This document shows, in pieces, positions 3,503-25,826 of a stretch of DNA of 34,410 nucleotides. Origin of the DNA: Promethearchaeota archaeon (GTDB lineage: Archaea; Asgardarchaeota; Lokiarchaeia; Sigyniarchaeales; SOKP01); the NCBI GenBank assembly GCA_048941285.1, contig JBHLNS010000027.1, forward strand, positions 12,211 through 46,620, in the 5' to 3' direction. A model generated the notes under the pieces. That model was not told the origin of the DNA. It saw nothing but the letters and a program-made list of their open reading frames with translations, and searched no databases. The translations under genes were made by a program, and so were the position numbers. Positions within the stretch are counted from its first letter, which is position 1; the number at the start of each line of letters is the position of its first letter.

Positions 3503-4543
3503 TTATTGTCTAGATCTAACTAATGTTTCAGTTAATTTAAAGAAAATTTCTTCAACATTTTTTCCCGTTACAGCTGATGTTTCTACATATTCCAAATTAA
3601 GTTGTCGTGCAACTGAGGTTGATTCTCCAAAATCAATCTTTCTTTTATTAACTAAATCTTCTTTATTCCCTAAAATAAAGCCAATTAATTCATCTTTACC
3701 TGAAACTATATTTCTTTTAATATCTTTATGCCAATTCGCAATACTTTCAAATGATTTACGATTTGTTAGGTCGAATATTAAAATTACCGCTTCTGCTCCT
3801 TTATAGAAGTGTCGACGCATAGCTTGAAATTTTATTTGGCCGGCAATGTCCCACAGGATAAGTTTAATTTTCAATTTATCTATTTCAATATTTTTTTCAG
3901 AAATATTAACACCTAGAGTAGGAATATATGTCCTTGTAAATGCATCATCAGTAAATCTCAAAATAGTTGAAGTTTTCCCTACTCCAGGATCTCCACAAAC
4001 CACTATTTTAAAGTTGTAGACAATTTTTTCTCCTTCTTGAACATCTTCTTGAGGAAAAGCTTCCAAATCTAATAATTTTTCTTCTTTTTTTAAATCATTT
4101 AATATTTCTGAGAGATTAAGATGAAGTTTATTAATTTCGTAAAAAATTTCATCAGTACTTGCTAAATTAAGTTTTAATTCTATAATTTTTTTTGCACTCT
4201 CATCAAAAGCTGTCTCAAGATAGTCTATATATTTATAAAAAATAAGATCATCTGCTTCATTGAATAATATAGTTATTGTTGATAATGCCATCCCTCCTTT
4301 AAACCTATCTGCTTCTCGTTCTATATATTTTACAATTCCTTTTAAATTAAATGAAGGAAAGGGCAATATTATAGCAGATTTAGGTACAATACCCTGATCT
4401 GTCGTTAATATAGTAATCGATTTAATAGCAACTGACATCCGAAGTTTCTCTGGCAAATCAAGAGGATTCCAAAGCACTGGATTTGGTCCAGATCCTTCGT
4501 TGAGTTCTGTGTAAACAATGGCTTTAATTATCTCATCAGACAT
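3503..4543 (-). CDS. uDENN/longin domain fused to Rab-like small GTPase (paralog A)
   Basis: C-terminal GTPase: GDPGVGKTS, YIPTLG, WDIAGQ, FYKGA, GNKED, ETSA. The N-terminal ~150 aa has the 'GPNP..W.P' and 'ILPFP' motifs shared with three other ORFs here. No C-terminal Cys prenylation motif. Confidence 0.9.
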   Translation of the reverse strand: MSDEIIKAIVYTELNEGSGPNPVLWNPLDLPEKLRMSVAIKSITILTTDQGIVPKSAIILPFPSFNLKGIVKYIEREADRFKGGMALSTITILFNEADDLIFYKYIDYLETAFDESAKKIIELKLNLASTDEIFYEINKLHLNLSEILNDLKKEEKLLDLEAFPQEDVQEGEKIVYNFKIVVCGDPGVGKTSTILRFTDDAFTRTYIPTLGVNISEKNIEIDKLKIKLILWDIAGQIKFQAMRRHFYKGAEAVILIFDLTNRKSFESIANWHKDIKRNIVSGKDELIGFILGNKEDLVNKRKIDFGESTSVARQLNLEYVETSAVTGKNVEEIFFKLTETLVRSRQ

Positions 4544-4651
4544 TATATTAAAAAAATTATCTATTTAATACGACAACTCCTTACTAAATAAATAAAGTTA
4601 AAATTATTAAAAATTTGTAAATTTAATTGTTTTCATACTTATAATATTAAA

Positions 4652-4675
4652 TTCGTGAAACTGAACTTTCACGAA
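4652..4675. promoter_or_regulatory. Perfect 9-bp inverted repeat, candidate operator or hairpin
   Basis: TTCGTGAAA-ctgaac-TTTCACGAA in the 417-bp gap between the two Rab-like genes, about 110 bp upstream of the ATG at 4543. Confidence 0.4.
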
Positions 4676-4960
4676 GATAATACTTCTTTAATTATATTTT
4701 TGAGTTTATAAATTTTGCTCGATCCTCTTGATTTGAAATTATAAGTATTTACGGGTATTTTAGCTATCTTATCATTGAAAAATATATAATTGGACAAATT
4801 CTTGCAATAAATCATTTATCTCTTCTCAAAGAAATGACATTTAGAATTTTTACATAAATATCTCTTAATAATTATATAATTTTATTATTAATTACCGTAC
4901 ACAGAATAGAAGTAGTTATATAAAAAAATAATTTATATTTTAAAATAGAAGCATAGAACA

Positions 4961-6016
4961 TTACATTCGAGACTTATATAATAGATTAGCAATGGTGGTG
5001 AATGCTTCATCGACGTTTTCACCAAGTAACGCGGAAGTTTCAATAAATCCTAATTCTAATTCACTAGCTAATTTATCAATACTATCAATTGATATTTTTC
5101 TGTCTTCTGTTAAATCCTTTTTATTTCCAATAATATAACCCAGCAATTCTTCTCTACGGTCTTTTAACTGTTCTATCACGTCTGAGTACCACTTCGGAAT
5201 ATTATTAAACGTCTCAGTTCTAGTGAGATCACAAACTAAAAATACCGCATCAGAACCTCTATAAAATTGTTGCCTCATTGTTTGAAATTTTTGCTGACCT
5301 CCAATATCCCATAGAGTTAATTGGATAACTATATCGTCGATCTTGAAAATTTTATCGCTCACCATTACTCCTAAGGTAGGTACGTAATTTCTCCTAAATG
5401 CATTATCAGTATATCTTAAAATTAATGAAGTCTTGCCGACATTTGGATCTCCAACAATTATAATTTTAAATTGATAGTCTATTAAACTTCTATCTTTTAT
5501 TTTTTGCGCAGGAAATGCTTCACTTTCCTGTTGAGTAATTTCTTGCTGTTTTAACTCTTCTAAAAGAGTTTGTACATTAAATTCAAGGTGCTCTATTACT
5601 CCAATAAATTCTTCCCTAGATGCTTTTGACTTTTCTAAATTTATAATTGTTGGAGAAAGATTATTAAAAGGAATAGAAAGTTCATTGATGTATTTATAGA
5701 AAATTACATCATCATTTTCTTGAAATAACAAAACGAGAGCAGATTGACCAATTCCACCGCGCCTAGATTCATCATTCCATTTGATATATTTAATTAATCC
5801 CTTTAAATTCATTGAAGTAAATGGAAGTATTACTAATGACTCTGGAATAAGACCCTGCTCTCCAGTTAAAACAGTTAAGGCTTTTATGCATATATGCATG
5901 AGTTCCATTTGAGATAGCTTAGAAGGTAGCCATGCGACTGGATTTGGTCCAATTTCATCATTCATTTCGATGTAGGCAATACCCTTTATAATCTGTTGCT
6001 TCATAATCGCAGACAA
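4961..6016 (-). CDS. uDENN/longin domain fused to Rab-like small GTPase (paralog B)
   Basis: GDPNVGKTS, YVPTLG, WDIGGQ, FYRGS, GNKKD, ETSA. Collinear with 3503..4543 over its whole length. TTG start at 6016 or ATG at 6004. Confidence 0.9.
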   Translation of the reverse strand: MSAIMKQQIIKGIAYIEMNDEIGPNPVAWLPSKLSQMELMHICIKALTVLTGEQGLIPESLVILPFTSMNLKGLIKYIKWNDESRRGGIGQSALVLLFQENDDVIFYKYINELSIPFNNLSPTIINLEKSKASREEFIGVIEHLEFNVQTLLEELKQQEITQQESEAFPAQKIKDRSLIDYQFKIIIVGDPNVGKTSLILRYTDNAFRRNYVPTLGVMVSDKIFKIDDIVIQLTLWDIGGQQKFQTMRQQFYRGSDAVFLVCDLTRTETFNNIPKWYSDVIEQLKDRREELLGYIIGNKKDLTEDRKISIDSIDKLASELELGFIETSALLGENVDEAFTTIANLLYKSRM

Positions 6017-6107
6017 TTTTACTTGATGAAGATATAATATGTTAATAAACTCTAAATTATTCGCTTTTAACTAATAATATAATCTTTATATATAAAAATA
6101 ATTACTG

Positions 6108-6118
6108 AAAAAAAAAAA
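6108..6118 (-). terminator. Oligo-T tract, candidate archaeal terminator
   Basis: T11 on the minus strand, 6 nt after the stop of the 7TM gene. Confidence 0.4.
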
Positions 6119-6124
6119 TTTAGG

Positions 6125-6835
6125 TTATGTTTTTAATCCTAAATACATTAACCAGAAACTACTTAAGTAACCAATTCTCACGATAATTACTGTTAAACCA
6201 GGAACAGTTAATCCCTCTAATAATCCAAAAACACAAAAACATAGAGAACCAGCCGAAAGGTATAGAAAATTCTTACGTATGGCACCAGAAGATTGAAAAG
6301 CTTTATATATAAATCCTATTCCTAAGAAAATTATAACTGATACTAATAACCCTCCCATTAAGTATCCTGCTAGAGTGAATAGATTTACATTATAATCGAT
6401 TAAATTTTCTGTAATGGGTGTAAGTGCGGGGGGGTTGAAATTAAAAGACTCTAAGGGATTTAGAAAAACAATAACCTCAAAGAAAATTGAGATAACTATG
6501 AAAATAATAACAATGTATATTTTTATTTTAGGTGTTAATAATTCTGCGCCTATAAACATTGCAGTTACTATTACTGGAGCAAACCAAATATATGATAATA
6601 TAGCTACGATCCCATTATTAGGCATATTTTGTTGCAGTATAAGAACAGAAAGAAAATCTAAAAAAACACCTAAAAACATTAAACCAGCAAGCATGTTTGC
6701 TAAACCTAAATAAGCAAGTAGCTTGGCATCCGTTTTTCTTGATCTATATAAAAAAAAAGAGCCAAATATTATACCAAATATCACCACTCCCGAAGCAGTA
6801 ATTCCATCAATCCAACCATTTATATGTGTAATCAA
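6125..6835 (-). CDS. Seven-transmembrane protein without output domain (Asgard 7TM / HisKA_7TM-like)
   Basis: Seven hydrophobic helices with basic short loops (RSRK, RKNF) and an extended loop between TM4 and TM5; TTG start. Confidence 0.72.
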   Translation of the reverse strand: MITHINGWIDGITASGVVIFGIIFGSFFLYRSRKTDAKLLAYLGLANMLAGLMFLGVFLDFLSVLILQQNMPNNGIVAILSYIWFAPVIVTAMFIGAELLTPKIKIYIVIIFIVISIFFEVIVFLNPLESFNFNPPALTPITENLIDYNVNLFTLAGYLMGGLLVSVIIFLGIGFIYKAFQSSGAIRKNFLYLSAGSLCFCVFGLLEGLTVPGLTVIIVRIGYLSSFWLMYLGLKT

Positions 6836-6932
6836 TTTTAAATTTCATCCCATTTTTTTTAATATACCCAAAATTGATTTATTATTTTTAAGATATAATA
6901 TAGTGATTTATTTTAATAAATCCTAGTGATAA

Positions 6933-7006
6933 TGGGAAAAGGGGGATTTGAACCCCCGACCTCTTGGTCCCGGACCAAGAATCATACCAAGCTAGACTAT
7001 CTTCCC
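6933..7006 (-). tRNA. tRNA-Pro(CGG), intronless, no encoded CCA
   Basis: GGGAAGA-TA-GTCTAGCTTGGTATGAT-T-CTTGG-TCCGGGA-CCAAG-AGGTC-GGGGG-TTCAAAT-CCCCC-TTTTCCC-A folds as a complete cloverleaf. Anticodon CGG at 6972-6970, G37, discriminator A. Confidence 0.93.
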
Positions 7007-7093
7007 TTCTTAAGTAAAATAAAAGATAGAAGAAATTTTGCCTTTTTCAAGGACAGGTAAATGTATAACATTCAAATATTTAAAATATTAAAT

Positions 7094-7369
7094 TTAATCT
7101 TTAACTTTCTCAAGTATAGACATAATTCTGTAGACAGTAGTGCGGCAATGAAAGGGGACGTTTGGATCTTGAGAAACATCATCAATAAAGTACATCACAT
7201 TGCTGGCAAGGACTCCCGGAGTTTCATCTTCCCTGTGTAATTCATTGATGCCTCTTTGCGCTATCCTTTTGATATTACGGGGCACACTACGGTCATTTAT
7301 CATTCCATTTAAAAGATATTCAACATTTTCAAAGGCTTGTTTTTCTTCATCAGTTAGTGCCCTTGGCAT
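7094..7369 (-). CDS. UPF0147 family protein
   Basis: I.NDRSVPRNIKR.A and D.VSQDPNVPFHCRT.VY.IMS.LE motifs. Start reassigned to ATG 7369 (MPRALT), which is preceded by GGTGA. Confidence 0.9.
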   Translation of the reverse strand: MPRALTDEEKQAFENVEYLLNGMINDRSVPRNIKRIAQRGINELHREDETPGVLASNVMYFIDDVSQDPNVPFHCRTTVYRIMSILEKVKD

Positions 7370-7463
7370 TAATAGTTTCACCAAAAGAAGTGTATGTGAT
7401 AAATAAGAAATATAAGAGGTAAAATTTTTTTTAAAATATAATTTTTTTGATTTTAACAAACAC

Positions 7464-10376: not shown

Positions 10377-10487
10377 ATTAATGAGAAACTCCTAAGCGTT
10401 GGAATAATGCGAAATTCCCTAAATAATAATAATTATTCTTCTGATTATAAATTAAACGTTAATAAAAAAAGTAACGTCAAAACTTGA

Positions 10488-11006: not shown

Positions 11007-11060
11007 GATAAGAAACTTTTTAATTATAGATATAAAAATAAAGAAAAAGAAAAAATTAAT

Positions 11061-12803: not shown

Positions 12804-13037
12804 ATGAAGAAATTTATTTTAAAAAAAATAGTTATCTGGGGATTCTTAACAATCAACCTACTATTTGCTTTTTTTATTGGTCTAACAATTCCTTTATTGC
12901 AATCAGCGAGCTATTTGAATCTTGGGTATATTATGATTCCATTATTAATTATCCTTAATTATATAATCTTAGATCGATTCCACTATTATTTAAGACACAC
13001 GAACGATGAAGAGGAGAATAAAAATGCAGAAGCTTAA
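12804..13037 (+). CDS. Small two-TM membrane protein, hypothetical
   Basis: 77 aa, two hydrophobic segments and an acidic tail; overlaps the start of the archaeosortase gene. Confidence 0.6.
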   Translation: MKKFILKKIVIWGFLTINLLFAFFIGLTIPLLQSASYLNLGYIMIPLLIILNYIILDRFHYYLRHTNDEEENKNAEA

Positions 13038-13893
13038 GGGATGGCCTCAAATAAAGAAACCTATTATTGAATATAATAAAAGAAAATACATTTTTTCAAT
13101 TAGGTCTATACTCCTATTTGCTTTTGGTGCACCAATTTCGGCCTATCTTATATATTTATTCTTTGATTTAAGAATTAATTATTGGCTTCATGAAATAGTG
13201 GTAAAACAGACTGTATTTTTTTTAAATTCATTTTTTAATATGGGTGCAGAAGCTCAATTTGCTCCAAGCGGAGTATATGATTGGAGATTTTTTATTCCTG
13301 GCAAGGATCCAATCTATTTTGAGACCTTTTGTACTGGAATTCAAGCGATCTGTATTTTTGCAGGAATTATCATATTTACACCTCATAGCCAAGATTTAAA
13401 TGCAAAAGAGGATATTATATGGAGAAAAACAAAAGCACTTATCGTTTCTTCAGTAATTTTTTATGTTGTTAACATTATAAGAATGTTAATTCAAATCGAT
13501 TTATACTATATTGGTTATGAATGGAACGATATTCATGTATCAATAAGCGCAGCTTCTTCATTTATCGCGGCAATCATTGTCTTATTGATGCATAAATGGA
13601 TTCCAGAATTTATTATATCAATAATTTATACTGGAACTCTCATCAGTGAGCCAATAAAACAGAATAGGAAAAGAAGAGTAAAACAATTAGTTGAAAAAGT
13701 GAATAAAGTTGAACTAAGAACAATGCGTAAGATTTTAAAAATGGATAAAAAGAACTTCTCAAATGATATTACTGCTTGGTCAGAGGACTTTGGTTATATC
13801 ATTGAAGGAGATTATTTGGTTATTTCACCTGAAAAGGTACCAAATTTTGTTATATTATTAATGCAGGATAAACCTTTCAAAAAAGAATCATAG
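13024..13893 (+). CDS. Archaeosortase/exosortase family protein with cytoplasmic C-terminal domain
   Basis: Membrane protein with the Cys-Arg-His triad motifs FCTGI, VNIIRM and DIH. ATG 13024 follows GAGGAG. Confidence 0.85.
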   Translation: MQKLKGWPQIKKPIIEYNKRKYIFSIRSILLFAFGAPISAYLIYLFFDLRINYWLHEIVVKQTVFFLNSFFNMGAEAQFAPSGVYDWRFFIPGKDPIYFETFCTGIQAICIFAGIIIFTPHSQDLNAKEDIIWRKTKALIVSSVIFYVVNIIRMLIQIDLYYIGYEWNDIHVSISAASSFIAAIIVLLMHKWIPEFIISIIYTGTLISEPIKQNRKRRVKQLVEKVNKVELRTMRKILKMDKKNFSNDITAWSEDFGYIIEGDYLVISPEKVPNFVILLMQDKPFKKES

Positions 13894-13951
13894 TAAATTT
13901 TATCTTCTTTTTAGCATAGTTTTTTACTATTAATTATCATTTTATTTAATT

Positions 13952-14854
13952 ATGTTAAATCTAGAAATTGAACAAAAAGAAATCCAAGTAGCTAGTGTAA
14001 CTTTTGGTGGACAGCCAGGAAAAAATCCAATTGTAATGATAGCAACAGTATTTTATGCAAAACATGCTGCCTTATTAGATGAAAGAACAGGAAAATTTGA
14101 TAAAGTTATTCTTGAAAAGGAATTAAATGATTTTACAGAAGTTATTGAAGATACGAGCTTACAAGGAGTAATAGATATCGTTGGGGCATATCCAGATGCA
14201 CTTCTAAAAGAGTGTGAATATATTGCGGATAACGTGGAATACCCATTTTTAGTAGATGGTTTGAACGATATGTCTCGAATTCCTGCTATGAAGGGATTGG
14301 GAGAAATGGGTTTATTAGATAGAGCAATATTAAATAGTATTGATGAAAACACAACTAATGAAAATTTGGAAAAACTGAAAGAGATTGGTGTAAAGAATGC
14401 CGTACTATTAACATTTGGAAATAAATATATTTTTCCACAACAAAAATTAAACTTCTTAAACGAAACATTAATTCCTAAAGCTGAGAAGGCAAATATCGAA
14501 AATTACATTGTTGATACTGCTGTTTTAGATTTACCTTCGATTTCTATCAATTTTGAGACAACAGGGCTCATTAAAAAAGAATTAGGATTACCAACTGGCT
14601 TTGCTCCTGCCAACGCGATATATGGATGGAATTTTATTAAAAAATATGGTGAAGTTGCTCGATGTGGAGCAATTGCTTCTATAATGACTTATTGCGCTGC
14701 TGCTCCGAGTGATTTTATTTTGTTTGGGCCAATAAAATTTGCAAAATGTGTGGTACCTGCAATATCTTTAATTTCAGGGGTAAATTCTTATTACCAGAAA
14801 AGAGTTAAAAGAAATATAATATCTGAAAAAAATCCCTTACAAGTTATTTTTTAA
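13952..14854 (+). CDS. mtrH: MtrH-like (tetrahydromethanopterin/corrinoid methyltransferase subunit H family) protein, stand-alone
   Basis: FGGQPGKNP.VMIATVFY..H, GKFDK, PFLVDG, DRAILNSI, IVDTAVLD, GLPTGFAPANA, DFILFGPI. No other mtr subunits in the window. Confidence 0.85.
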   Translation: MLNLEIEQKEIQVASVTFGGQPGKNPIVMIATVFYAKHAALLDERTGKFDKVILEKELNDFTEVIEDTSLQGVIDIVGAYPDALLKECEYIADNVEYPFLVDGLNDMSRIPAMKGLGEMGLLDRAILNSIDENTTNENLEKLKEIGVKNAVLLTFGNKYIFPQQKLNFLNETLIPKAEKANIENYIVDTAVLDLPSISINFETTGLIKKELGLPTGFAPANAIYGWNFIKKYGEVARCGAIASIMTYCAAAPSDFILFGPIKFAKCVVPAISLISGVNSYYQKRVKRNIISEKNPLQVIF

Positions 14855-16353
14855 GCGATATACCTTAATAATAAATCTTGAGTGTAATTTATAAAGTTTG
14901 ATAATTCCTTCTTGATTTTTTCTTTTTTATTTTCATTATCCACTAAAAATAAAAAGAACATAATATTGTCTTCTAATTGAATTCTTTGAAAAATTATTAT
15001 TGAATTAGCTACCTTAAATACGGCTTCATCTTGCTTTAATGCTTTGAATTTTGCAAAGATTTTAAATAACACGGCAAATTGAGGTGCTGAAACTTCAAAA
15101 ACATTAATAACATCTGATTTTGGAATCTTTGTTAATTCCATTGCTTGATTATTGTAATAATCAGCAAGAACTAACCCATCAACACTTAATAATTGTGTCA
15201 AATAGGTACCTGTTATTAATGAAAAGTTTTTCAAATTATGATTTATCAGATCTCTATTTGGACTTAATTTTGAGATCCCTGAAGAAAATGCGCGTAAAAT
15301 AGTAAAAATCTCAAAAATTGTTGTTATATAAATTTCAATAGGTCGATTTTGGTTAATCTCTTTCAACTTATTTTCAATATATTGAATGTTATCTCGAATT
15401 TCTTTTGAATTTAAGATATCTGAATCTCCTTTTGATAAAATGTAGATAATGGGTGTATTTTGATTGAATTCTTTTATAACACTATTTAAATTTTGAAGAT
15501 AATCAATGCTTTCATCAAATCTAGATTTATTTTTAATATCTATAAAGTAAAACATTAAATCAGCTTCGTATAAATAAATTTCTGCTTTATCTATATATTT
15601 CTCTCTAAATTTTTTTTGTCCGCCTAAATCCCATAGAAATATTGTTGCTCCCAATGCCTCGATAGACTTAATGCTTGCTCCTGCTGTTGGTTTGAGTCCA
15701 ATTAATTTACTATATTTACGATCTACTGAAAGTAGAAAACTAGTTTTACCTGAATCATCCAATCCTGCAAATAAGATTTTCATCTTTCTATGTGTTGTAA
15801 TCGGTGTAGAAGGGTTTTGTTCAATTTCAATTATTTTAGAGAGAAGATCTTTGAAGAATTTTTCAACATCTTCACGTGGAGGATATAATTTACTTATTTC
15901 TTCATCAAATTTTGTAAAAAATTCTAAAACAACAGGTTTAATTCGATTTATGTTATTATATAAAAAGCTACGTTTATTTTCTTCTACTAGTATTGAAAAA
16001 GCTGTCGCGACAGCATTTTTTTCAGAATTTGTTCGAATAAAATGGAAATAAGTAAGAGAGGTTGTGTTAAAATCAGGATAAGGTAATATTGCAAAATATT
16101 GGATTTTTTTAAGATCTTTTTCTTCACTGATTATTTTATCACTGATAAACAGACTTAAGTTTTTAATGGAAATCTGAGTTATATCTCTATATGATAAAAT
16201 TAGTTCATCTTGTTTCTTTTGATCTATAGGAAGCTCCTTTAACTCTTTCTCGCTAATATAATTCGGAAAGCAGTAGATTGGCGTTGGGCCAAGCTCACCA
16301 TATACACTAAAAACAAAACCCTTAACAATTGAAGATTTTAGTAATTCTTCCAT
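14851..16353 (-). CDS. uDENN/longin + Arf/Rag-like small GTPase + roadblock-like domain protein
   Basis: N-terminal GELGPTP and ILPYP; GTPase GLDDSGKTS, KPTAG, WDLGGQ, SKGD, TTIFE; C-terminal LSPNRDLI..L..F..LLSVDGLVLA roadblock pattern. Collinear with 24363..25826. Confidence 0.88.
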   Translation of the reverse strand: MEELLKSSIVKGFVFSVYGELGPTPIYCFPNYISEKELKELPIDQKKQDELILSYRDITQISIKNLSLFISDKIISEEKDLKKIQYFAILPYPDFNTTSLTYFHFIRTNSEKNAVATAFSILVEENKRSFLYNNINRIKPVVLEFFTKFDEEISKLYPPREDVEKFFKDLLSKIIEIEQNPSTPITTHRKMKILFAGLDDSGKTSFLLSVDRKYSKLIGLKPTAGASIKSIEALGATIFLWDLGGQKKFREKYIDKAEIYLYEADLMFYFIDIKNKSRFDESIDYLQNLNSVIKEFNQNTPIIYILSKGDSDILNSKEIRDNIQYIENKLKEINQNRPIEIYITTIFEIFTILRAFSSGISKLSPNRDLINHNLKNFSLITGTYLTQLLSVDGLVLADYYNNQAMELTKIPKSDVINVFEVSAPQFAVLFKIFAKFKALKQDEAVFKVANSIIIFQRIQLEDNIMFFLFLVDNENKKEKIKKELSNFINYTQDLLLRYIA

Positions 16354-16446
16354 GCTAGTAATTTGCTAATTATGAATTTTCACTAATAAATATCTTAATT
16401 TAATTTAAGTAAAGTTAATTATTAATAGCTTTATATTTAAATATAG

Positions 16447-17409
16447 ATGTTTCTTAAAAAAATCGCTGAAAGCATTAGGAATAACCATTATATCATAGAA
16501 AAGAAAGAAATTAACCCTATTGTTCAATTTATTGCTAAAAATTCATTTAAAAGTACTAAAATATTCACTGATATTGGTGAAGATTCAGCGTCCATAGAAA
16601 ATAATAATAAGTTAATTTTGATTACAACTGATAGGATACGTACGTCATTTATCGAGAATTTTCCTTTTGGAGCAGGTTTTAGTTCTATTCTAGTAAGTGT
16701 TGATGATATTTATGCATGCGGTGGAACTCCCTTAGCTGCCAGCATAATCATTTCTGTTAAGGATCCTAAAACTTGTAACGAAATTTTAAAGGGCATATGT
16801 GAAGGTTCCCATAAATTTCAGGTTCCAATTATAAGAGGTCATACAAATGTTCATAGTAAATGCTTCGAACTAAGTTCTACAATGATTGGGGAAATAAGTA
16901 AAGGAGACTATATATCAGCAGGAAATGCTCAAGTGGATGATAACATAATATTAGTTGTTGATTTCGACGGAAAAGTAGGAAAAGCTAGTAAACTATATTA
17001 TGATACAACTACATTTAAATCATCAGAGGAGATCCTCACCAAAAGAAAAGCTATGAATGTTATAGCAAAAGAACATTTATTAAATGCGTCAAAAGATATC
17101 TCAAATGGTGGTATCTTTGGAACATTATTACAAATGACTAAATATTCAGGAGTGGGGGCAGATATCAATATCAAGAGAATTACGATTCCTCCTATTTTGA
17201 TTGAAAATGAATATAATTTAGAAGATTATATTAAAATGTATTTAACTACTTCTTATATAGTAACTGCGACAGAAAGTAATTCGGATAAAGCAATTGAAGT
17301 CTTTAAGGAACATAAAATGAAAGCAGAAGTAATAGGAAAAATTATTGTCGAGAAAAATCTTTTAAAAATAAATAACGGAATAAAATCTCTCGATGTTATT
17401 AGATATTAG
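16447..17409 (+). CDS. AIR synthase-related (PurM-like superfamily) protein, methanogenesis marker 2 / sll0787-like
   Basis: IGEDSA, LITTD, VSVDDIYACGGTP, VPIIRGHT, SKDISNGG.FGTL. Confidence 0.8.
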   Translation: MFLKKIAESIRNNHYIIEKKEINPIVQFIAKNSFKSTKIFTDIGEDSASIENNNKLILITTDRIRTSFIENFPFGAGFSSILVSVDDIYACGGTPLAASIIISVKDPKTCNEILKGICEGSHKFQVPIIRGHTNVHSKCFELSSTMIGEISKGDYISAGNAQVDDNIILVVDFDGKVGKASKLYYDTTTFKSSEEILTKRKAMNVIAKEHLLNASKDISNGGIFGTLLQMTKYSGVGADINIKRITIPPILIENEYNLEDYIKMYLTTSYIVTATESNSDKAIEVFKEHKMKAEVIGKIIVEKNLLKINNGIKSLDVIRY

Positions 17410-17487
17410 TTATTTTTAATAAAAATATTATCATAATTCTTAGCTAAAATTATTTTAAAATAATTAATAAAAAGGAGTCAGAATCTT

Positions 17488-18027
17488 ATGAGTGCTGATT
17501 TTAAAAAAAAAATTAATGGTGTAGTTAGTGTAATAGGGGCAAGTGAAATTGATAAAGACATGAGAAATAAAAGTATTGAAATTGGACGATTAATCGCAAA
17601 AAATAATTATGCGATTGCATGTGGAGGTCTTTCAGGAGTAATGGAAGCAGTATGTAAAGGAGCAAAAGAAGAGGGAGGCTTTACTATAGGCATAATTCCT
17701 TTTGTAGAAAAATCAGCCGCAAATAAATATATAGATCTAGTTATTCCTTGCCCATTTTCTCAAGCGAGAAATATTGTTGTTGTTTTAGCAGGAGATGTGT
17801 GTTTAGCTATAGGAGGTAAAGCTGGTACTTTATCTGAGATTTCATTTGCCTGGATTTACCAAAAACCCATTATCGCATTAACAGATGTTGATGGATGGTC
17901 TTCTAAAATTGCTAACCAAAAACTAGATGATCGAAGACAAGATATGATTTATGGGGTGAAAACTCCAAAAGAAGCAATCGAAAAAATAATGGAACTGCAA
18001 AAAAAATTATCAAATTTGAAAAAGTGA
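17488..18027 (+). CDS. LOG family (TIGR00725-type Rossmann-fold) protein
   Basis: CGGLSGVMEAVCKGA..GG.TIGIIP, ARNIVVV, AIGGKAGTLSEI. Confidence 0.9.
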   Translation: MSADFKKKINGVVSVIGASEIDKDMRNKSIEIGRLIAKNNYAIACGGLSGVMEAVCKGAKEEGGFTIGIIPFVEKSAANKYIDLVIPCPFSQARNIVVVLAGDVCLAIGGKAGTLSEISFAWIYQKPIIALTDVDGWSSKIANQKLDDRRQDMIYGVKTPKEAIEKIMELQKKLSNLKK

Positions 18028-18178
18028 AATTAAAGGATGGTTAAACAACTAATTAAAGGTATGAAAAACGACAAATTATGATTCATCGAGTGAAAATTAC
18101 TTAAGATTTAATGAATCTAATAAACCTATTTTTTAAAAATCCAGTAGAAACTAAAAATGTGAGTTTTACAAATTGCTA

Positions 18179-18934
18179 CTAGATTTTCTTTAATCTTAAG
18201 AAGAAATATTCTTCCTCTAATTTTTGGTCAATAATCTTAAAGCCTATATCTTTTATTAATTCAATGAAATATGAGACATCCTGCTCCTTATTCCAGCGTG
18301 TTCCATAACCAGCCACTACTTCCTTATCTTTAATTTGAACTTTATTCAAAATTACATATAATTCTTTTTCTTTATCAATATTTTTTGGAATAATTGGATC
18401 CCAAATTATAAATTCGCCTTTTTTTCTTAAGACCCTGTAAATCTCTTTAAATATTTTTTTATGATCACTTTTAGGCATATACATAATTGAGAAGAATGCT
18501 GTTATAGTATCAAAAGTGTTATCAAGGAATTTTAAATCCTTGGCATCCATAATTATTTTAAGACTTTCAGAATCACCTGCCTCAAGAGCCTCTTCAAGTT
18601 CACTTTTTCTTAAATCTATTGATATAACAGAGTCTCCTTTCAATTGACCTATTATTCCTTCTCCCCCGCCACCTATGTCTAGAATTCTCCCATCTAACTT
18701 TATATTATTTAGATTAATTCCTTGAGGATGTGTAAAAAAAATATTTATCCCTTTTTTCTTGCTAACAAATGCTTCAATTTCAACCTTAGTTGCATGCCAC
18801 ACTTCCTCAATTTTTTTACCATTTAATTCTCCGGTCTCTAAATGATTTCTTATGGTATCTTCAGTTTCTCCACTTGTGAAGATTTCTACAATTTCTACAA
18901 TATCATAATATCTGACATTGTTTATTTCTCTCAT
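18179..18934 (-). CDS. Class I SAM-dependent methyltransferase with N-terminal HTH-like domain
   Basis: ILDIGGGGEG, IDL, MDA.DL.F.D.TFD, EIYRVL...G.F. The N-terminal 60 aa resembles an excisionase/HTH_17 domain. Confidence 0.85.
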   Translation of the reverse strand: MREINNVRYYDIVEIVEIFTSGETEDTIRNHLETGELNGKKIEEVWHATKVEIEAFVSKKKGINIFFTHPQGINLNNIKLDGRILDIGGGGEGIIGQLKGDSVISIDLRKSELEEALEAGDSESLKIIMDAKDLKFLDNTFDTITAFFSIMYMPKSDHKKIFKEIYRVLRKKGEFIIWDPIIPKNIDKEKELYVILNKVQIKDKEVVAGYGTRWNKEQDVSYFIELIKDIGFKIIDQKLEEEYFFLRLKKI

Positions 18935-19088
18935 ATTGAACCTAAAATAAAGTAATTATTTAATTTTTTTATTTACTAACACTTTAATGTATAATGCAAA
19001 ATCTAAATAAATGATGCTATAATTTTTTATCTTACAAAAAGAATATATTTATATACCAATTACTTTTATAACTTTAAATAGGTGAAAT

Positions 19089-20063
19089 TTGACTTTGGAA
19101 AAGGATCTTAAACAATCAATTTTGTATTTGAAAAAGAAAGAACCAGAGGTAGAGGTAGCTCCAAATAAGCTACTTTTCACAGGACTTGATGATGCAGGTA
19201 AAACAAGCATTATTTTAGCACTTCAAAGAGAATTTTCCAAAATTGCTATTTTGTCTCCAACAAGAGGTGCTCAAAGAAGGATATTCGACTTTTTGGGTAA
19301 AGAGATCTCCGAATGGGATTTAGGTGGACAATTAGCTTATCGAATAGCTTATTTGAAAAACCCGGGAAAATATTTTGAAGGAACAGAAATTGCTATATAT
19401 GTAATTGATGTTCAAAATAAACCAAGAATCGCTGAGGCGGTTAGTTATTTTAAAGATGTTATAGACCAATTTAAAAAGTTAGAGATTGAACCACCAATTT
19501 ATGTATTTCTCCATAAATACGATCCTGCTCTTAGGCGGAGCGCTCAAAATGAGATGGAATCTATAGTAATAGATTTAAAAGATCAACTTAGAGCCACTAA
19601 ATATAAAGAAATTTATTATTATGAGACATCTATATATGATTTTGGTTCAATTATTAGTGCTATGTCTGAAATTCTGTTAAGTTTATATCCAAAATCAGAA
19701 TTAATAGAAAAAACTATTGTGGAATTTGCAAAAAAAGTAGATTCAGAAGGAGTTGTTATAATTGATGACAATTCCCTAATAATTGGATCTTACTACAAGG
19801 ATGATGAAACAAAGCACCTCCTGACGGCTAGTACTCCTTATTTTCTCACGCTGAATGATTCATTTCAATATACTGGCGTAGAAGAAAGATATGAGAATAG
19901 AATGATTGTTCAAAGATTTGGGAAAAATTTTATATTTAAACAAATTACGTTAAGGAGAGAATCATCTCCATATTATCTACTGCTTCTTAAAGAGGATCCC
20001 GTCTTTCATAAAGAAGATCTTGAATCTTTTGCAAATCTATTAAAAGAGATTCTTTATAAATAA
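19089..20063 (+). CDS. Rag/Arf-like small GTPase with C-terminal roadblock-like domain
   Basis: GLDDAGKTS, SPTRG, WDLGGQ, HKYD, ETSIYD, then LYPKSELIE..I.EFAKK...GVVIIDDNSLII. TTG start after AGGTGA. Confidence 0.9.
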   Translation: MTLEKDLKQSILYLKKKEPEVEVAPNKLLFTGLDDAGKTSIILALQREFSKIAILSPTRGAQRRIFDFLGKEISEWDLGGQLAYRIAYLKNPGKYFEGTEIAIYVIDVQNKPRIAEAVSYFKDVIDQFKKLEIEPPIYVFLHKYDPALRRSAQNEMESIVIDLKDQLRATKYKEIYYYETSIYDFGSIISAMSEILLSLYPKSELIEKTIVEFAKKVDSEGVVIIDDNSLIIGSYYKDDETKHLLTASTPYFLTLNDSFQYTGVEERYENRMIVQRFGKNFIFKQITLRRESSPYYLLLLKEDPVFHKEDLESFANLLKEILYK

Positions 20064-20255
20064 GATGATTGAATGCTTTTTAAACTTGTTTTAATACGTA
20101 GTATCTTAGTTTTCTTAATACTAACATTATTAAAATTGGATTTTTACTTATATTTTGTGAAATAAAAACGAAATTATATGGTTTTAAAATATATATAATA
20201 AAATAAAACTGAATGAAGAGATCAACCAAAATACTCAAATATTGGAGAAAATAGA

Positions 20256-21320
20256 TTGATTATTTGTCAGAATTGTGGGACTACTAATAATGAAGCAGTA
20301 ACCAATACTTGTAGAACATGTGGAGCATTGTTACCAGTATCTTCTAAGAGTACAAGATCAAGAAGATTAAAAACAGATAAAAAAAAGAAAGAAATCCAAA
20401 AACCGGTTCAACAATCACAATATAACTCTAGTGAATCGGAAGATTTTGGAAAACATAAATTGGAACTACAAGAAATTCCTAAAGAAGATGAGTTAATAAA
20501 TGATAGCGCTGAATTACATGAGATCCCTAAATTATTAGATGAAAAACAAGGAACTAAAGCGTCTTCAGTAAAAGAAGAAGTATCTGTGAAAGTTAAAACG
20601 GAAATCTTACAAGAAATTCCCGCTCAACCCTTTAGAGGAACCATTATGGACTCCCGTAATAGCTTTCAACCTCTATCTCACTCAACAAACTCTATTTCAG
20701 ATGCTTTTATGGAACTTAAAAGTTCAGTTCTAAAGGATCAAGAGAAGAGACAATCTGTTTCATTACCACCCATTTCCTCGGAGAAAACCGAAACTGATGA
20801 TTCTGTTTTAAGACAGAAACAATTAGAAAAAGATATGACTAAAGTATTAAGTTTTCTTTCAAAAAAGATTTCGGTAAAAAAATTAGAAATTCCTGAGCTT
20901 GAGGAAACTGAGAAATTAAAGCAAAAAGAAGATATACCTCCTTCTAGCATGAATGAAATTTTAAAAAGATTGATCTCAATAGATTTGAATATCGAAGCTT
21001 CAGCAATTATTAAAACGGATGGGACAATACTAGCTTCAGCAATATCAAGTAGGATTTCAGATTCCTTATTTGCAACAATAGCTATGAATCTATCAATGAT
21101 GGGTTCAGATATAATTGAAGGGTTAGATGCAGGTAAATTAAAATCAATTTGCGTTCGTGGTTCTGAAGGAATTTTAGACCTCGCCCCTATAGATAAAGAA
21201 AACCCAATTGCTAAAGATATGATTTTAGTAATACTCAGTCATCCAAAAACTAAGAGTGGAATTATATCATTTGCAGTTAACATCGTCAAAAAACAATTAA
21301 AAGAATATTTTGGTTCATAA
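20256..21320 (+). CDS. Zinc-ribbon + disordered linker + Roadblock/LC7 domain protein
   Basis: CQNC...CRTC at the N-terminus; C-terminal IEASAIIKTDGTILASAI...I.VRGSEG..GII roadblock signature. TTG start after GGAG. Confidence 0.88.
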   Translation: MIICQNCGTTNNEAVTNTCRTCGALLPVSSKSTRSRRLKTDKKKKEIQKPVQQSQYNSSESEDFGKHKLELQEIPKEDELINDSAELHEIPKLLDEKQGTKASSVKEEVSVKVKTEILQEIPAQPFRGTIMDSRNSFQPLSHSTNSISDAFMELKSSVLKDQEKRQSVSLPPISSEKTETDDSVLRQKQLEKDMTKVLSFLSKKISVKKLEIPELEETEKLKQKEDIPPSSMNEILKRLISIDLNIEASAIIKTDGTILASAISSRISDSLFATIAMNLSMMGSDIIEGLDAGKLKSICVRGSEGILDLAPIDKENPIAKDMILVILSHPKTKSGIISFAVNIVKKQLKEYFGS

Positions 21321-21347
21321 AAATAAAGACTTTAGCAAAAAAAAGTT

Positions 21348-22142
21348 TTATAATATTTTTTTTTGCATGCTTACTTTATTAATTTTAATAAATCTGAAAT
21401 ATGCTAAATTATTGTGTAATTCTTGTAAAAATGAATTCAATTCATATATAGAAACCAAAGGAATTTGATTATTATTAATTTTAGAGCTATTGTCTTCAAA
21501 AGTGACAATTGCTGGGATTAAAAAAAATGGTAATCGTTTTTTTATATCACTTTTTATGCCTATTGAATCTTGAATCATTCTTGAAAAGACTTCAGGATTT
21601 TTTTTCAACGCAACAGCTCTTCTATACTGCAAATCTGCTGCTTTATTGATAGAACTAAAAGAATCTTTGCGTTTCCACTGTTTTGCATCAATAAGTAGCA
21701 CATACTTTAAATCAATCCCAATAATATCAATTTCATATTTTTTTTGAGTAGTTTTGGATTTAAAATTGGATTTATCTGAGAATCTGAAATTTTTTAAGGT
21801 TTTGTAATTATTTATTGAAAGAATTTCTTGTATTAAGGCTTCAAACCCATCATAATTTAATAATTCAGAAAGATATCTGATATCCCGTTTTAAAACATTG
21901 ATACTGTTTATTATAAAAAGTATTTTATTAATTACAATATAGTTTTGATAATTGCCTTTCTGAAGTGATATAAAGTTAAATTCGTCTAAGAAATTTCTTA
22001 ACTCAATACCACTAAATTGATTAAAGAAGGGAATTTCTGAGATCTCCCACCATACTTCGGTAATGTTCGTCTCAGTTTCTCTTAAGATATAATAGATTTC
22101 ATTATAAAATTGCTTTACAGATAACTGAGTTTTGATCTTCAT
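21348..22142 (-). CDS. PD-(D/E)xK restriction-endonuclease-like protein (Mrr/NERD-like)
   Basis: FEALIQEIL, EIDIIG, IDAKQWK catalytic pattern. Confidence 0.75.
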   Translation of the reverse strand: MKIKTQLSVKQFYNEIYYILRETETNITEVWWEISEIPFFNQFSGIELRNFLDEFNFISLQKGNYQNYIVINKILFIINSINVLKRDIRYLSELLNYDGFEALIQEILSINNYKTLKNFRFSDKSNFKSKTTQKKYEIDIIGIDLKYVLLIDAKQWKRKDSFSSINKAADLQYRRAVALKKNPEVFSRMIQDSIGIKSDIKKRLPFFLIPAIVTFEDNSSKINNNQIPLVSIYELNSFLQELHNNLAYFRFIKINKVSMQKKIL

Positions 22143-22401
22143 AATTATAACTAAATATTGATGTTAAAATAAAATAGTGAGACTAATAGAATTCTGAAGA
22201 ATTTTTAAAAAATAAAAATAGGGCATTTTTTAATGATAATTAACACCCTAAGCTTTAGTGATAAACAACAAATTTAGGGTATTTTACTAGTTATAAATGC
22301 TATCTTTATTTTTTATGATATTTTACGATGTAATCAGTTAATAATTTTGTTTTTTAACTTTTAGAAATATTATTACTCAAGTTTAATCAAAAAAAAAGTA
22401 A

Positions 22402-24216
22402 ATGAAAACTTTCATGGATTTATTACCAAAAGTATTTAGAACTGAAGGGACTATAGCAGATTTTGATCCTAATAAAATTTACGTAAGTATTTTAAAAGAA
22501 ACAGGAATGAGTGAAGAAGATGCTAAGAGTATAACAGAAATTGTAGTCAGAAGAATAATAAGCTCGGGGATCAAATTTTTATCTGGTCCTCATATAAGAG
22601 AAATAGTTTGTTCTATTCTTTCAGAAGAGCATTTTGAAAATGAACGTAAATTGTATACAAGAATAGGAATGCCATTAATGGATTATGAAGAAATTCTTGA
22701 AAAAAGTCCAATAGAAGACCTTTATAAGTTGGTAAATCCAGAAAAAATACATCATTGGGCTGGGAATAAAATCGCTGAGGAATACGCACATTTAAGAATA
22801 TTAAATAATGAAGAATCTAAAGCTCATCTTGCCGGTGATATTCATATTAATGGTTTAAATTATTTTGTTCTACGACCATTTATTCAAATATGGGATCCTC
22901 GACTTATTTTGAAAAATGGACTACCACCAATGAAAACACTGAAAGGATATTATAAATATAGTCCTGCAAAAAATCTTAAATCAGCTTTATATCAATTAGC
23001 TAAATGGTTAGAGATGATTCAAGCAGAATTTTATGGATACCAAGGTTTTAATTTTATTAATACATTCTTAGCGCCATATTTATCCGAATTAAATGAAAAT
23101 GAGATATCAAAAGATATTAAGAGTTTTATTTATGAAAACAATTTATTATCTCTTTCAATCGGGCGCGAAGTACCCCCAATATCGATAATATCAACAATAA
23201 CTGTTCCTAAAGAACTTATAAATACTCCAGCAGTAACTCTGAGTGGTAAAACTAAAAATATTTATGGAAATTTTCAAAACCAATGCACTCAATTTTTCAA
23301 AACTATATTCCTAATCTTTAAAAGTATTTATGAGAAAAATCCTCTTCTTTCTTTACCAAAACATTACATCTTATTGAATCCCGAGTTTTTCGATTTAATT
23401 GAAGGTTTAATTCCCAAATTCTGGGACGATATTGAGTTGCTATCTTCCGCTTACTTTATGAATCTTAATCCCAATTCCTATAAATTTAAAGCCTTAGCAG
23501 ATTTAAATAAAGAAACGTATCAAAATTTTGGTATACTTCAAAATATCAGTCTAAATTTACCCAGATATGCGTTCTCTACTAAGGATGAAGACAAGTTTTT
23601 AGAATTATTAGGATTAAAATTAGATTTATGCTCCAATATTTTGCTTAAGAAATATGACATAATAAAGAAAAGAATTGATTCAAAACATTTACCACTTTGT
23701 GGTACAATTGTTGAAGGAGAACAATTATTTAAATTGCATAATCAAGGTTTATCTGTAAGTTTAGTAGGGTTAAATGAAGCAATTAAATATATAACAGATT
23801 ATGATCTGCATGAAAGCATAGATATAATTAATTTTGGTAGGAAAATATTAAATGAAATTAATCAATTGTGCTTAGAATATTCCAATAATAATAATAAAAT
23901 CTTTTTACTTAGTGAAAACCTTTCAGAAAAAGCTATTAACAGATTTACTAATTCAGATTTAAAACAATTTCCAGATAAAGTAAGATATGTCGCCAATAAT
24001 AGAAATTATACCAACTCTGTTAATCTTCGTGAAGGTTTATCTATAGATGTATTAGAAAGAGTTAAAATTCAGGAGAATTTTCATGAATTCATACATGAGG
24101 GAGCAACTATTAATATTTCTTTGACGGAATTAAAAAGAAACGGCCTAACTATTAAAGATTTTTTAACAAAAATTTCTAAGGAATCAAGGATATCAAATTT
24201 AAAATTTTATTCTTAA
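22402..24216 (+). CDS. ATP-cone + degenerate class III ribonucleotide reductase (NrdD)-like protein
   Basis: ATP-cone VFRTEG...FDPNKI...L.GPHIREIV; AH.AGDIHI.GL; GQG-like YGYQGF..NTFLAPY; SLNLPR; VGLNEA; YTNS; HEG. Lacks catalytic cysteines and the C-terminal glycyl-radical domain. Confidence 0.82.
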   Translation: MKTFMDLLPKVFRTEGTIADFDPNKIYVSILKETGMSEEDAKSITEIVVRRIISSGIKFLSGPHIREIVCSILSEEHFENERKLYTRIGMPLMDYEEILEKSPIEDLYKLVNPEKIHHWAGNKIAEEYAHLRILNNEESKAHLAGDIHINGLNYFVLRPFIQIWDPRLILKNGLPPMKTLKGYYKYSPAKNLKSALYQLAKWLEMIQAEFYGYQGFNFINTFLAPYLSELNENEISKDIKSFIYENNLLSLSIGREVPPISIISTITVPKELINTPAVTLSGKTKNIYGNFQNQCTQFFKTIFLIFKSIYEKNPLLSLPKHYILLNPEFFDLIEGLIPKFWDDIELLSSAYFMNLNPNSYKFKALADLNKETYQNFGILQNISLNLPRYAFSTKDEDKFLELLGLKLDLCSNILLKKYDIIKKRIDSKHLPLCGTIVEGEQLFKLHNQGLSVSLVGLNEAIKYITDYDLHESIDIINFGRKILNEINQLCLEYSNNNNKIFLLSENLSEKAINRFTNSDLKQFPDKVRYVANNRNYTNSVNLREGLSIDVLERVKIQENFHEFIHEGATINISLTELKRNGLTIKDFLTKISKESRISNLKFYS

Positions 24217-24362
24217 ATGAAATAAATGCTATAGTAAAAAAAGTATTTAATAAGAATGACTTTTTTGAATATAGTAATACTAGGATTTTATAATATTTTA
24301 AAATTAAAAAGCTATTTAACTTTAATTAGATAAGAATTTCCTAAAAATTTAATGGGGATTGC

Positions 24363-25826
24363 TTGACAAAAAAAAAAGAAAAGCAAAATAAAGAAAAGCC
24401 ACCAACGGAAGAAACAACAGAGAGCAAAATGAATATTATTAGTGCAGTAGTTTTAAGCATATTCGATGAAAATGGCCCAACACCAAAAATTTTTTGGCCT
24501 GATGATTTAGATGAACAAGCTGGGCTTTTAATTGCTATGAAAACCATTAGTTTATTAATGGGAGATGCAACTTACCAAGATGGAATAGGAACAGAAGGAG
24601 TTAACTATTTTGGAATATTACCTTTCCCTGATTTAAAGTTAAATGGATTGACTTACTTCTTCTTAATTCCTGATGATAGTGCGCGTGGAAAAGCTTTAGC
24701 GGCTACAATAACAGTATTAATTGATGAAAACAACAAGGTGTTCTTCTATGAAAACATGAAGTATTTAAGAGTTATAATGGATAAAGCAGCTACTCAAATT
24801 CAATATAATAAAGATAATGATGAAAGAGAAATCATTATTGATGAACTTCGTGGAGAACTCATGGAGTTTACCAAAGAATTAAAAGATCCTTTCTCTACAA
24901 AAAGACAATTGAAGATCTTGCTAACTGGACTGGATAAAGCAGGAAAGACGAGTTTTATGTTGGGAATAAAACGAAAATATTCAGAAATTATAAAATCTAT
25001 GCCAACTAAAGGGGTTGATAGAACAGAAGAGAATATTTTCGATGAACAAAATTCACAAATTTCTGTATGGGATTTAGGAGGCCAAGAAAAATATAGAGAA
25101 AGATATCTCGAGCAAAGTGAAGTGTATTTATACAATATAGATTTAATGTTTTTTTTCATTGATATTCAAGATATAGAAAGAATTGAGGAAGCACTTGGCT
25201 TATTTAGAAGGCTTTTGAAAATTTTGGTAGAATTAGATGAATTTCCTCCAATCGTTGTTTGTCTTAATAAATTCGATCCGGATCTTAAGGGTTCTGAGGA
25301 AATCTTTAAAAATCTAGAAGTAATAGCAGATACGATAAAGGAGAAAGCTGATAGATTCTTTATTAAAATTTTCCAAACAACGATTTTTGATCATTGGAGT
25401 CTTATTTCCGCATATTCATTCGGTTTATCTCAATTAAGCCCTAACCGCGAGTTATTTAGAAATCAATTGAAAAAATTCGCGAAAAAAACCAATTCAGATG
25501 CAATTTTACTACTTAATGAGAACGGTCTAATCTTATCTAATTTTTCAAAGACTGATATTTCTGGAAAACTATTTGAGATAATTGCCCCATATTACAAAAA
25601 TCTCTATAAAACATTCGAGGAATTCAAATTATTAGAACAAGATTTCATTGTGTCTTCTGGAATTGCAGATGAGTCTAAAAAAGTGATTTTTAAGAAAATT
25701 ACTGTCGAAAAATATAATCTATACCTACTTTTATTTTTAGAAAAGTCGTTGGAAATTGAAAAAATTGAAAAAAATTTACCTGAATTTTCAAAAAACATTG
25801 TTGATTTAATTCATACCTATATTTAA
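24363..25826 (+). CDS. uDENN/longin + Arf/Rag-like small GTPase + roadblock-like domain protein
   Basis: SIFDENGPTP..FWP, ILPFP, DDSARG; GTPase GLDKAGKTS, MPTKG, WDLGGQ, NKFD, TTIFD; C-terminal LSPNRELF..LKKFAKK..AILLLNENGLILS. Confidence 0.9.
   Translation: MTKKKEKQNKEKPPTEETTESKMNIISAVVLSIFDENGPTPKIFWPDDLDEQAGLLIAMKTISLLMGDATYQDGIGTEGVNYFGILPFPDLKLNGLTYFFLIPDDSARGKALAATITVLIDENNKVFFYENMKYLRVIMDKAATQIQYNKDNDEREIIIDELRGELMEFTKELKDPFSTKRQLKILLTGLDKAGKTSFMLGIKRKYSEIIKSMPTKGVDRTEENIFDEQNSQISVWDLGGQEKYRERYLEQSEVYLYNIDLMFFFIDIQDIERIEEALGLFRRLLKILVELDEFPPIVVCLNKFDPDLKGSEEIFKNLEVIADTIKEKADRFFIKIFQTTIFDHWSLISAYSFGLSQLSPNRELFRNQLKKFAKKTNSDAILLLNENGLILSNFSKTDISGKLFEIIAPYYKNLYKTFEEFKLLEQDFIVSSGIADESKKVIFKKITVEKYNLYLLLFLEKSLEIEKIEKNLPEFSKNIVDLIHTYI

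Follow-up and report, generated by a model that had tools for sequence, protein, structure and literature searches.

Four predicted GTPases encoded within 22.3 kb of one another in a stretch of Asgard archaeal DNA raise the question of whether a GTPase and the domain that would activate it are carried on one polypeptide, and whether such polypeptides act in asymmetric pairs. The stretch, referred to here as the window, comprises 34,410 nucleotides of a Promethearchaeota archaeon (assembly GCA_048941285.1, contig JBHLNS010000027.1, positions 12,211 to 46,620 of the forward strand) with a G+C content of ~29%, and sits on contig C35 of a 3.55-Mb genome in 101 contigs; the closest database relatives of its proteins carry the source names Promethearchaeota or Lokiarchaeia. 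An earlier reading of the letters, the original prediction, proposed that the four proteins share an N-terminal longin domain and form two paralogous pairs, one Rab-like (P0001 and P0002) and one Rag-like (P0003 and P0004), each with one longin bearing an arginine finger and one in which lysine replaces it, so that only one subunit of each dimer would supply GTPase-activating protein (GAP) activity. All four open reading frames (ORFs) are present where it placed them (Table 1). We tentatively favor a reading, about which we remain slightly more doubtful than confident, in which these proteins are GTPases fused to GAP longins, the Rag-like pair would form a heterodimer with a single finger, and P0001 represents a local loss of the finger.

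The four proteins do share one N-terminal domain. A hidden Markov model (HMM) of their N termini, searched against the 5,415 ORFs of the genome, retrieved only these four (E ≤ 3e-55), the next match lying at 0.036. MAFFT and hhalign both supported homology, and the longins of the two Rag-like clades described below aligned to each other in hhalign with a probability of 99.9% (E 1.5e-32). Each has a GP motif near the start of the domain. The loops and residues quoted in the original prediction were correct (EADRFKGG with K82 in P0001, NDESRRGG with R86 in P0002, RTNSEKNA with K112 in P0003, and PDDSARGK with R108 in P0004), and MAFFT placed these four residues in one column. This finger column held Arg in all 120 relatives listed for P0002 and in all 120 listed for P0004. 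Among 27 finger-bearing relatives, a set made up of fused Rag-like proteins, one fused Ras-like protein, and stand-alone longins from several Asgard families, the only invariant columns were G19, P68, R89, and G90, with P20 nearly so. G19 is the G of GP, P68 belongs to the ILPFP strand, and R89 and G90 to the loop. The Arg is flanked by hydrophobic, strand-like stretches (...GLTYFFLIP / ALAATITVLI...), which fits the loop between strands 4 and 5 as judged from the alignment.

A GP motif and an Arg finger are reported as the marks of the eukaryotic GAP longins FLCN, NPRL2, and SMCR8, with C9orf72 keeping GP only, and the same survey describes 15 Asgard "FLCN/SMCR8-type" longins with both marks (PMC12290439, Traffic 2025). 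The fingers of SMCR8 (R147) and FLCN (R164) have been located in the strand 4-5 loop of their longins (10.1101/2020.04.16.045708). The finger-bearing members have a longin with Arg at the expected finger position, as had been proposed. The Pfam Folliculin model (PF11704) weakly matched 17 of the 17 longins scanned from the clade of P0004 (best E 2.2e-5) and none of the 21 scanned from the clade of P0003. The N-terminal domain is, by these marks, a folliculin/SMCR8-type GAP longin with a putative GAP role. No DENN or family-specific C-terminal domain follows the longin in these proteins, where the GTPase domain comes directly after it; they are therefore not members of the eukaryotic FLCN, SMCR8, or NPRL2 families, though the domain is of that type. 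A neighboring cluster in the Atlas carries an NPR2 label on 19% of its members, which we treat as a lead only.

It is also important to point out what counts against this identification. The Folliculin matches score under or close to the gathering threshold (23.3 bits), P0004 itself reaching 18.2 bits, and our longin profiles reached no FLCN, NPRL2, or SMCR8 chain in the PDB at E ≤ 10, so the equivalence with FLCN R164 is drawn from the position of the loop and from the motif rather than from an alignment. In the nearest PDB relative of the longin, 8yqg ("Longin domain," E 2e-17), the finger column is occupied by Pro. Alternatively, then, the longin might be a platform, an exchange factor, or an effector-binding module rather than a GAP, with Arg-Gly and GP serving folding, dimerization, or ligand binding; indeed, most longin/roadblock dimers are reported to be guanine nucleotide exchange factors or scaffolds (Tran et al. 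2024, PMC10933270). We consider this improbable. The positions that stay invariant across 27 divergent sequences are those that mark the eukaryotic GAP longins (PMC12290439), and the Arg stands between hypervariable positions, as is usual for a residue in a catalytic loop rather than one in the core.

The nearest PDB relatives of these proteins are titled "Longin domain" and "GTP-binding protein" (8yl2 and 8zla/9m28; E 2e-60 and 5e-40 for the Rag-like part), and a literature search found no paper on entries 8yqg, 8yl2, 8zla, or 9m28.

In the Rag-like pair, P0003 and P0004, the longin is followed by a Gtr1_RagA G domain at residues ~185 to 395 and then by ~100 more residues (Pfam E 1e-20 and 6e-25; 74.4 and 88.6 bits, respectively, against a curated cutoff of 22). 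To place them, we searched 41 genomes (the window's own, 24 others of its genus, and 16 others of the order), all of which carry the domain, and built a tree of the full set of 70 longin-Rag-roadblock sequences. The tree search was a quick one with no bootstrap, and long-branch warnings were printed; it gave two clades, each with a Shimodaira-Hasegawa-like approximate likelihood ratio test (SH-aLRT) support of 100. Clade A, which includes P0004, had 38 members from families f1 to f4, every one with the motif A-R-G; clade B, which includes P0003, had 32 members from f1 and f2, none with it. Profiles of the G domain plus tail aligned to human RagA (clade A, residues 7 to 278 of 313, E 4.5e-23; clade B, E 1.7e-18) and also to RagC residues 63 to 366 of 399, that is, beyond the G domain. 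Because these matches extend past it, the tail is predicted to be a Rag-type roadblock domain.

The two clades treat the finger loop very differently. When the sequences were split by the A-R-G motif, a split that coincides with the tree clades, clade A showed an entropy of 0 bits at A, R, and G, with flanking positions at ~2.7 bits. In clade B the same loop (R107 to N113 in P0003) had 2 to 3 bits and was the most variable stretch of the domain. Its finger column holds K (in this genome only), N, S, D, H, or E within the genus; T, Q, R, or K in family f2; and E (five), I (one), or Q (one) in seven sequences from five other f1 genera. The original prediction had cautioned that alignment register matters, and for P0003 this was justified, since the loop of clade B is shorter by one residue, which leaves either R108 or G109 as a possible counterpart of K112; the profile-profile alignment sets R108 opposite E111 and G109 opposite K112. 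The rest of the clade B longin is well conserved, and GP is kept in both clades except in one or two sequences. The conservation of Arg in the clade of P0004 is far from chance, and the Lys of P0003 is a chance residue. With K112 limited to this genome within the genus, we read the clade B longin as a functional fingerless longin and not as a Lys variant, and the relevant contrast lies between Arg and the lack of a finger rather than between Arg and Lys. One member of each pair does lack the Arg, as proposed, P0001 having K82 and P0003 no conserved residue; "Lys-substituted" as the property of a class did not hold up.

Two other arginines of clade B were considered as substitute fingers and set aside. 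R107 of P0003 is found in 12 of the 24 sequences from the genus and is absent from family f2. The invariant R128 comes after strand 5, which by reasoning on longin topology would put it at the opposite end of the sheet from GP and the finger.

The G domains of the two clades also diverge. Of the 38 sequences in clade A, 37 keep the switch-II Gln, as do 27 of the 32 in clade B. HKxD is the G4 motif typical of Rag GTPases, and it is the form found in clade A of families f2 to f4; most clade A sequences of f1 have NKxD. In clade B, the G4 motif reads SKxD in f1 (24 of 24), in agreement with the degenerate SKGD noted earlier for P0003, and TKxD in f2. The five clade B sequences without the Gln are all from f2 and have K (three), S (one), or a residue unmatched by the motif search (one). 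The four with K or S read WDIPGK/S (L068, L080, L095, and L109), and G domains of this kind may not hydrolyze GTP in the usual way.

We examined whether the two clades travel together. Of the 25 genomes of the genus, 24 had clade A, 24 had clade B, and 23 had both; the exceptions were G006, a scaffold with N gaps, and G001, which is in 460 contigs. In family f2, 8 of 11 genomes had both at full length, and both were present in all six further f1 genomes whose whole interval was examined. The co-occurrence for which the original prediction suggested a test is supported for the Rag-like pair: the split into finger-bearing and fingerless proteins is old and stable, and its two branches occur together, the second not being a K-type clade. 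In a phylum-level sample, 48 of 151 genomes had a match to the domain; strong fused forms occurred only in the window's order, and outside it the domain was found in proteins without a G domain.

Where clades A and B lie on one contig, their genes are head to head and 4 to 20 kb apart. The order and orientation of the genes between them were the same in eight of eight further genomes (two from f2, and six of f1 from five other genera): B, an AIR-synthase-related gene, a SLOG gene, a longin-less Rag-like GTPase gene, a NERD gene, and A. The f1 interval additionally holds a zinc-ribbon/roadblock gene and an NrdD-like gene. This interval belongs to a block of at least 12 genes (window positions 13006 to 32443) whose order and orientation are kept between the two families at 29 to 47% protein identity, as compared at loci L104, L109, and L157 to L167, with unrelated insertions in some genomes. 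Besides P0003, P0004, and the AIR-synthase-like, SLOG, Rag-like, and NERD genes between them, the block includes a transmembrane protein gene (13006) and, past P0004, a transglutaminase-like gene, orf211, an ORF at 28750, a methyltransferase gene, and a gene for a CxxCxxCC protein.

Several of these observations weigh against a dedicated A-B complex. The five genomes of families f3 and f4 yielded clade A alone, so A can do without B. G006 has B with no A detected, there being only a second B-type fragment beside a gap. Genomes of a single genus are nonindependent samples. The block contains apparently unrelated genes, its order being kept between f1 and f2 for at least five genes beyond A and one beyond B; the linkage is weak evidence of joint function and supports a shared context, not specifically an A-B complex. 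Finally, the Gtr1_RagA model has 29 matches in the window's genome at E ≤ 1e-5, about a dozen of them of Rag-like length (300 to 430 aa), and a longin-less Rag-like gene lies between A and B, so other roadblock partners are available; this third Rag-like GTPase and the zinc-ribbon/roadblock protein are possible candidates.

The main alternative, possible if unlikely, is that these proteins are self-contained switches and that A and B do not pair at all. The longin would then be a built-in GAP acting on its own G domain or on that of a homodimer partner, and P0003 and P0001 would be paralogs without self-GAP activity, either slow GTPases or otherwise regulated. The abundance of Rag-like genes and the families with A but no B fit this alternative, as do the several genera with a single longin-Ras-like gene and the recurrence of finger loss in single paralogs (Pro in genus g13; Pro or Met in family f4); homodimers of such architectures have also been modeled (Tran et al. 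2024, PMC10933270). However, the known longin GAPs need two longins, the C9orf72 or SMCR8 longin alone being inactive (10.1101/2020.04.16.045708). The strong conservation of the clade B longin outside the loop, GP included, argues for a retained partner role and not for decay, and the two clades co-occur in fixed places of one block across two families.

A one-finger heterodimer is thus a plausible reading of the Rag-like pair. Under it, clade A, which keeps A-R-G, the folliculin-like signature, and the switch-II Gln, would pair with clade B, which keeps the fold and GP, has lost the finger, carries S/TKxD as its G4 motif, and in some members of the sister family lacks the Gln as well. The two would associate through their C-terminal roadblock domains in the fashion of RagA-RagC, and their longins would pair as in FLCN-FNIP2 or SMCR8-C9orf72. 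Such a complex would contain a single catalytic Arg, and GTP hydrolysis would be stimulated on one G domain only. That G domain would more likely be A's own, because clade A keeps the catalytic Gln more consistently than clade B does.

The Ras/Rab-like tandem pair tells another story. P0001 and P0002 have a Ras-family G domain at residues ~180 to 345 (Pfam E 2e-48 and 2e-45), and their C termini (...LVRSRQ and ...LYKSRM) have no Cys and thus no Cys prenylation motif of Rab GTPases, for which reason "Rab-like" is better read as Ras-like. The P0002 start is probably the ATG at 6002-6004, four codons downstream of the TTG, because its database twin has 347 aa; R86 becomes R82 in that numbering. 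The relatives listed for P0002 share the motif W.D..RRG, and Arg occupies the finger column in 22 of 22 members of its tree clade. Among the 120 nearest relatives listed for P0001, 97 have R and 23 have K. Of the latter, 22 (P0001 included) form the closest group, with at least 72.6% identity and the motif F/Y/S-K-G-G, and the one separate K sequence reads S-R-K-G-G.

In a tree of 61 longin-Ras-like sequences, the K sequences formed one clade of six species with a support of 100, nested among 12 R-type orthologs (6 of 18 members of the P0001 ortholog clade). These six species likewise form a group within the P0002 clade, where their stem branch is 0.019, compared with 0.15 for the K clade. In the sister genus, six of six tandem pairs were R/R, so the duplication predates the split from that genus, and four other genera have a single longin-Ras-like copy. 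The duplication is thus best placed at the family level, with both copies normally keeping Arg. The K82 codon, AAA, is one transition from AGA, and K82 is one recent, fixed R-to-K change limited to the six-species subclade. The claim that the same pattern is repeated for two GTPase classes accordingly fails: with R/R pairs in the sister genus and single-copy genera elsewhere, the asymmetry is not built into the Rab-like class, and a one-finger heterodimer is not the general design of that pair. P0001 instead lost its finger once (RR to FK), a local attenuation of one paralog and not an ancestral design.

Pairwise ratios of nonsynonymous to synonymous substitution rates (dN/dS) for the K-type longin were ~0.12 (comparison sets, 0.10 to 0.17), a rough estimate with dS of ~1, near saturation, and they indicate that P0001 with K82 is under purifying selection. 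This constraint, the strict retention of K across the 22 sequences of the closest K-type group, and the retention of Gly-Gly after the finger column would also suit a working "lysine finger," by which the tandem pair would be functionally symmetric. We regard this as very unlikely, as the Arg just before the finger disappeared along with it (RR to F/Y/S-K) and the K clade sits on a long stem branch. Replacing the Arg finger with Lys also greatly weakens classical GAPs. As another candidate finger, R80 of P0001 was rejected, being unique to this genome among the 22 closest K-type sequences.

The finger column also varies elsewhere among longin-Ras-like proteins. In genus g13 (L124 and L125), the only copy has Pro there in two of two genomes. 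In family f4 (L073, L084, and L093), some copies have Pro or Met, and the Arg losses are independent.

FLCN-FNIP2 is a GAP for RagC/D, NPRL2-NPRL3 of GATOR1 is a GAP for RagA/B, and SMCR8-C9orf72 is a GAP for Arf/Rab. The Asgard proteins resemble these complexes in having a GP longin with an Arg in the strand 4-5 loop and a predicted Rag-type client, and in combining a finger-bearing with a fingerless longin, here in a complex that is only proposed; clade B is like C9orf72 in keeping GP and lacking the Arg. Unlike in all three, the Asgard longin is fused in cis to the GTPase and is accompanied by no DENN or other C-terminal domain of the GAP complexes, and the likeness to FLCN in sequence is subthreshold. 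With RagA/B-RagC/D and Gtr1-Gtr2, which are obligate heterodimers of two paralogs joined by their roadblocks, the Rag-like proteins share a G domain followed by a C-terminal roadblock, two old co-occurring paralogs, and the profile matches to RagA and RagC; they differ in the extra N-terminal longin and in the many further Rag-like paralogs of the same genome. The bacterial Ras-like GTPase MglA and its GAP MglB offer a prokaryotic parallel in which a dimer of the roadblock/longin superfamily regulates a small GTPase. MglB, however, is not known to supply an Arg finger and, unlike the fused Asgard longins, is a separate protein that forms a homodimer.

Much of the framework is already in print. 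Longin-GTPase and longin-GTPase-roadblock architectures have been described in "Candidatus Prometheoarchaeum" MK-D1 (Tran et al. 2024, PMC10933270), and "Rag GTPases fused to longin" by Liu et al. 2020/2021 (10.1101/2020.10.19.343400). These proteins have the same domain layout and belong to the same archaeal class, and the main texts describe neither the GP/Arg motifs nor a finger/fingerless pair. The Asgard FLCN/SMCR8-type longins of the 2025 survey are of the same domain family but stand alone and are not fused to GTPases (PMC12290439), and 8yqg, also of this family, is likewise not GTPase fused. Our searches, made in full texts without their supplements, found no paper describing the fused longin as being of the GP/Arg type or a finger/fingerless paralog pair; the domain architectures and the GP/Arg motifs of Asgard longins are thus published, and the pairing of finger-bearing with fingerless paralogs was not found in print.

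The ancestral Asgard state was probably a stand-alone, finger-bearing longin acting in trans (PMC12290439). The 2025 survey leaves open which Asgard GTPases the GP/Arg-finger longins act on. Fusion of the longin to a G domain names the client GTPase, and here it directly names Rag-like and Ras-like GTPases as candidates. The finger/fingerless pairing of paralogs also mirrors FLCN-FNIP, NPRL2-NPRL3, and SMCR8-C9orf72, as well as RagA-RagC. If the pair binds, asymmetric Rag regulation could be studied in a compact prokaryotic system of two proteins instead of about ten, and its logic would date to before eukaryogenesis. A broader and rather improbable extension is that A, B, the longin-less Rag-like GTPase, and the zinc-ribbon/roadblock protein represent an archaeal forerunner of the Rag-Ragulator-FLCN/GATOR system with GAP and GTPase on one polypeptide. 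Were this true, the one-finger, two-GTPase asymmetry of eukaryotic nutrient signaling would have arisen before eukaryotes, and the SLOG and AIR-synthase-like neighbors might be the source or the sensor of a small-molecule input.

Table 1. Features of the window, with positions counted from its first nucleotide
Feature	Position	Strand	Description	Motifs and remarks
P0001	3503-4543	minus	Longin - Ras/Rab-like GTPase; tandem paralog of P0002	GP 4484-4489; K82 4298-4300 (AAA), F81 just before; R80 4304-4306
P0002	4961-6016	minus	Longin - Ras/Rab-like GTPase, W..D..RRGG type	GP 5945-5950; R85 and R86 5759-5764
tRNA-Pro (CGG)	6933-7006	minus		Between membrane protein gene 6125-6835 and UPF0147 gene
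P0003	14851-16353	minus	Longin - Rag-like GTPase - roadblock, clade B (fingerless)	GP 16285-16290; K112 16018-16020; E111 16021-16023; P-loop GLDDSGKT; G4 SKGD
AIR-synthase-related gene	16447-17409	plus	Pfam assignment	Fixed place beside P0003
SLOG cluster-4 gene	17488-18027	plus	Pfam assignment	Fixed place near P0003
Third Rag-like GTPase	19089-20063	plus	Roadblock tail, no longin; Gtr1_RagA E 6e-26	Place kept in 8 of 8 genomes
Zinc-ribbon + roadblock-like protein	20256-21320	plus	Robl_LC7 E 0.007 (weak)	Kept in the six f1 genomes only
NERD-like gene	21348-22142	minus	Pfam NERD E 0.004 (8e-6 in G036)	Place kept in 8 of 8 genomes
P0004	24363-25826	plus	Longin - Rag-like GTPase - roadblock, clade A (finger-bearing)	GP 24474-24479; A-R-G 24681-24689; R108 24684-24686; P-loop GLDKAGKT; G4 NKFD

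Among the neighboring genes, the AIR-synthase-related and SLOG genes are always adjacent, beside the fingerless gene, and their ORFs overlap by 4 nucleotides in G036 and G038 (L104, 4038-5539). They could provide a small-molecule input to the GTPases. In family f4, small fingerless longins lie two genes from the clade A gene, with a DUF1464 gene between; they are equally like A and B, and the arrangement is no more than suggestive.

Stand-alone longins with GP and (A)RGG occur in other Asgard families (L152/G077, L139/L148/G138, and L144/L147/G171), and one genome encodes three such longins in tandem (372, 375, and 166 aa). In another family, ~245-aa Arg-type and ~365-aa Arg-less proteins occur in the same genomes, which looks like a finger/fingerless pair of separate proteins; the non-Arg matches are weak (~E 1e-7).

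Elsewhere in the window, neither orf211 (27281-27916) nor a 611-aa membrane protein (32482-34317) matched a Pfam family. There is a weak resemblance between the N terminus of orf211 and the cytosolic part of the membrane protein (29% identity over 38 residues, E 0.005).

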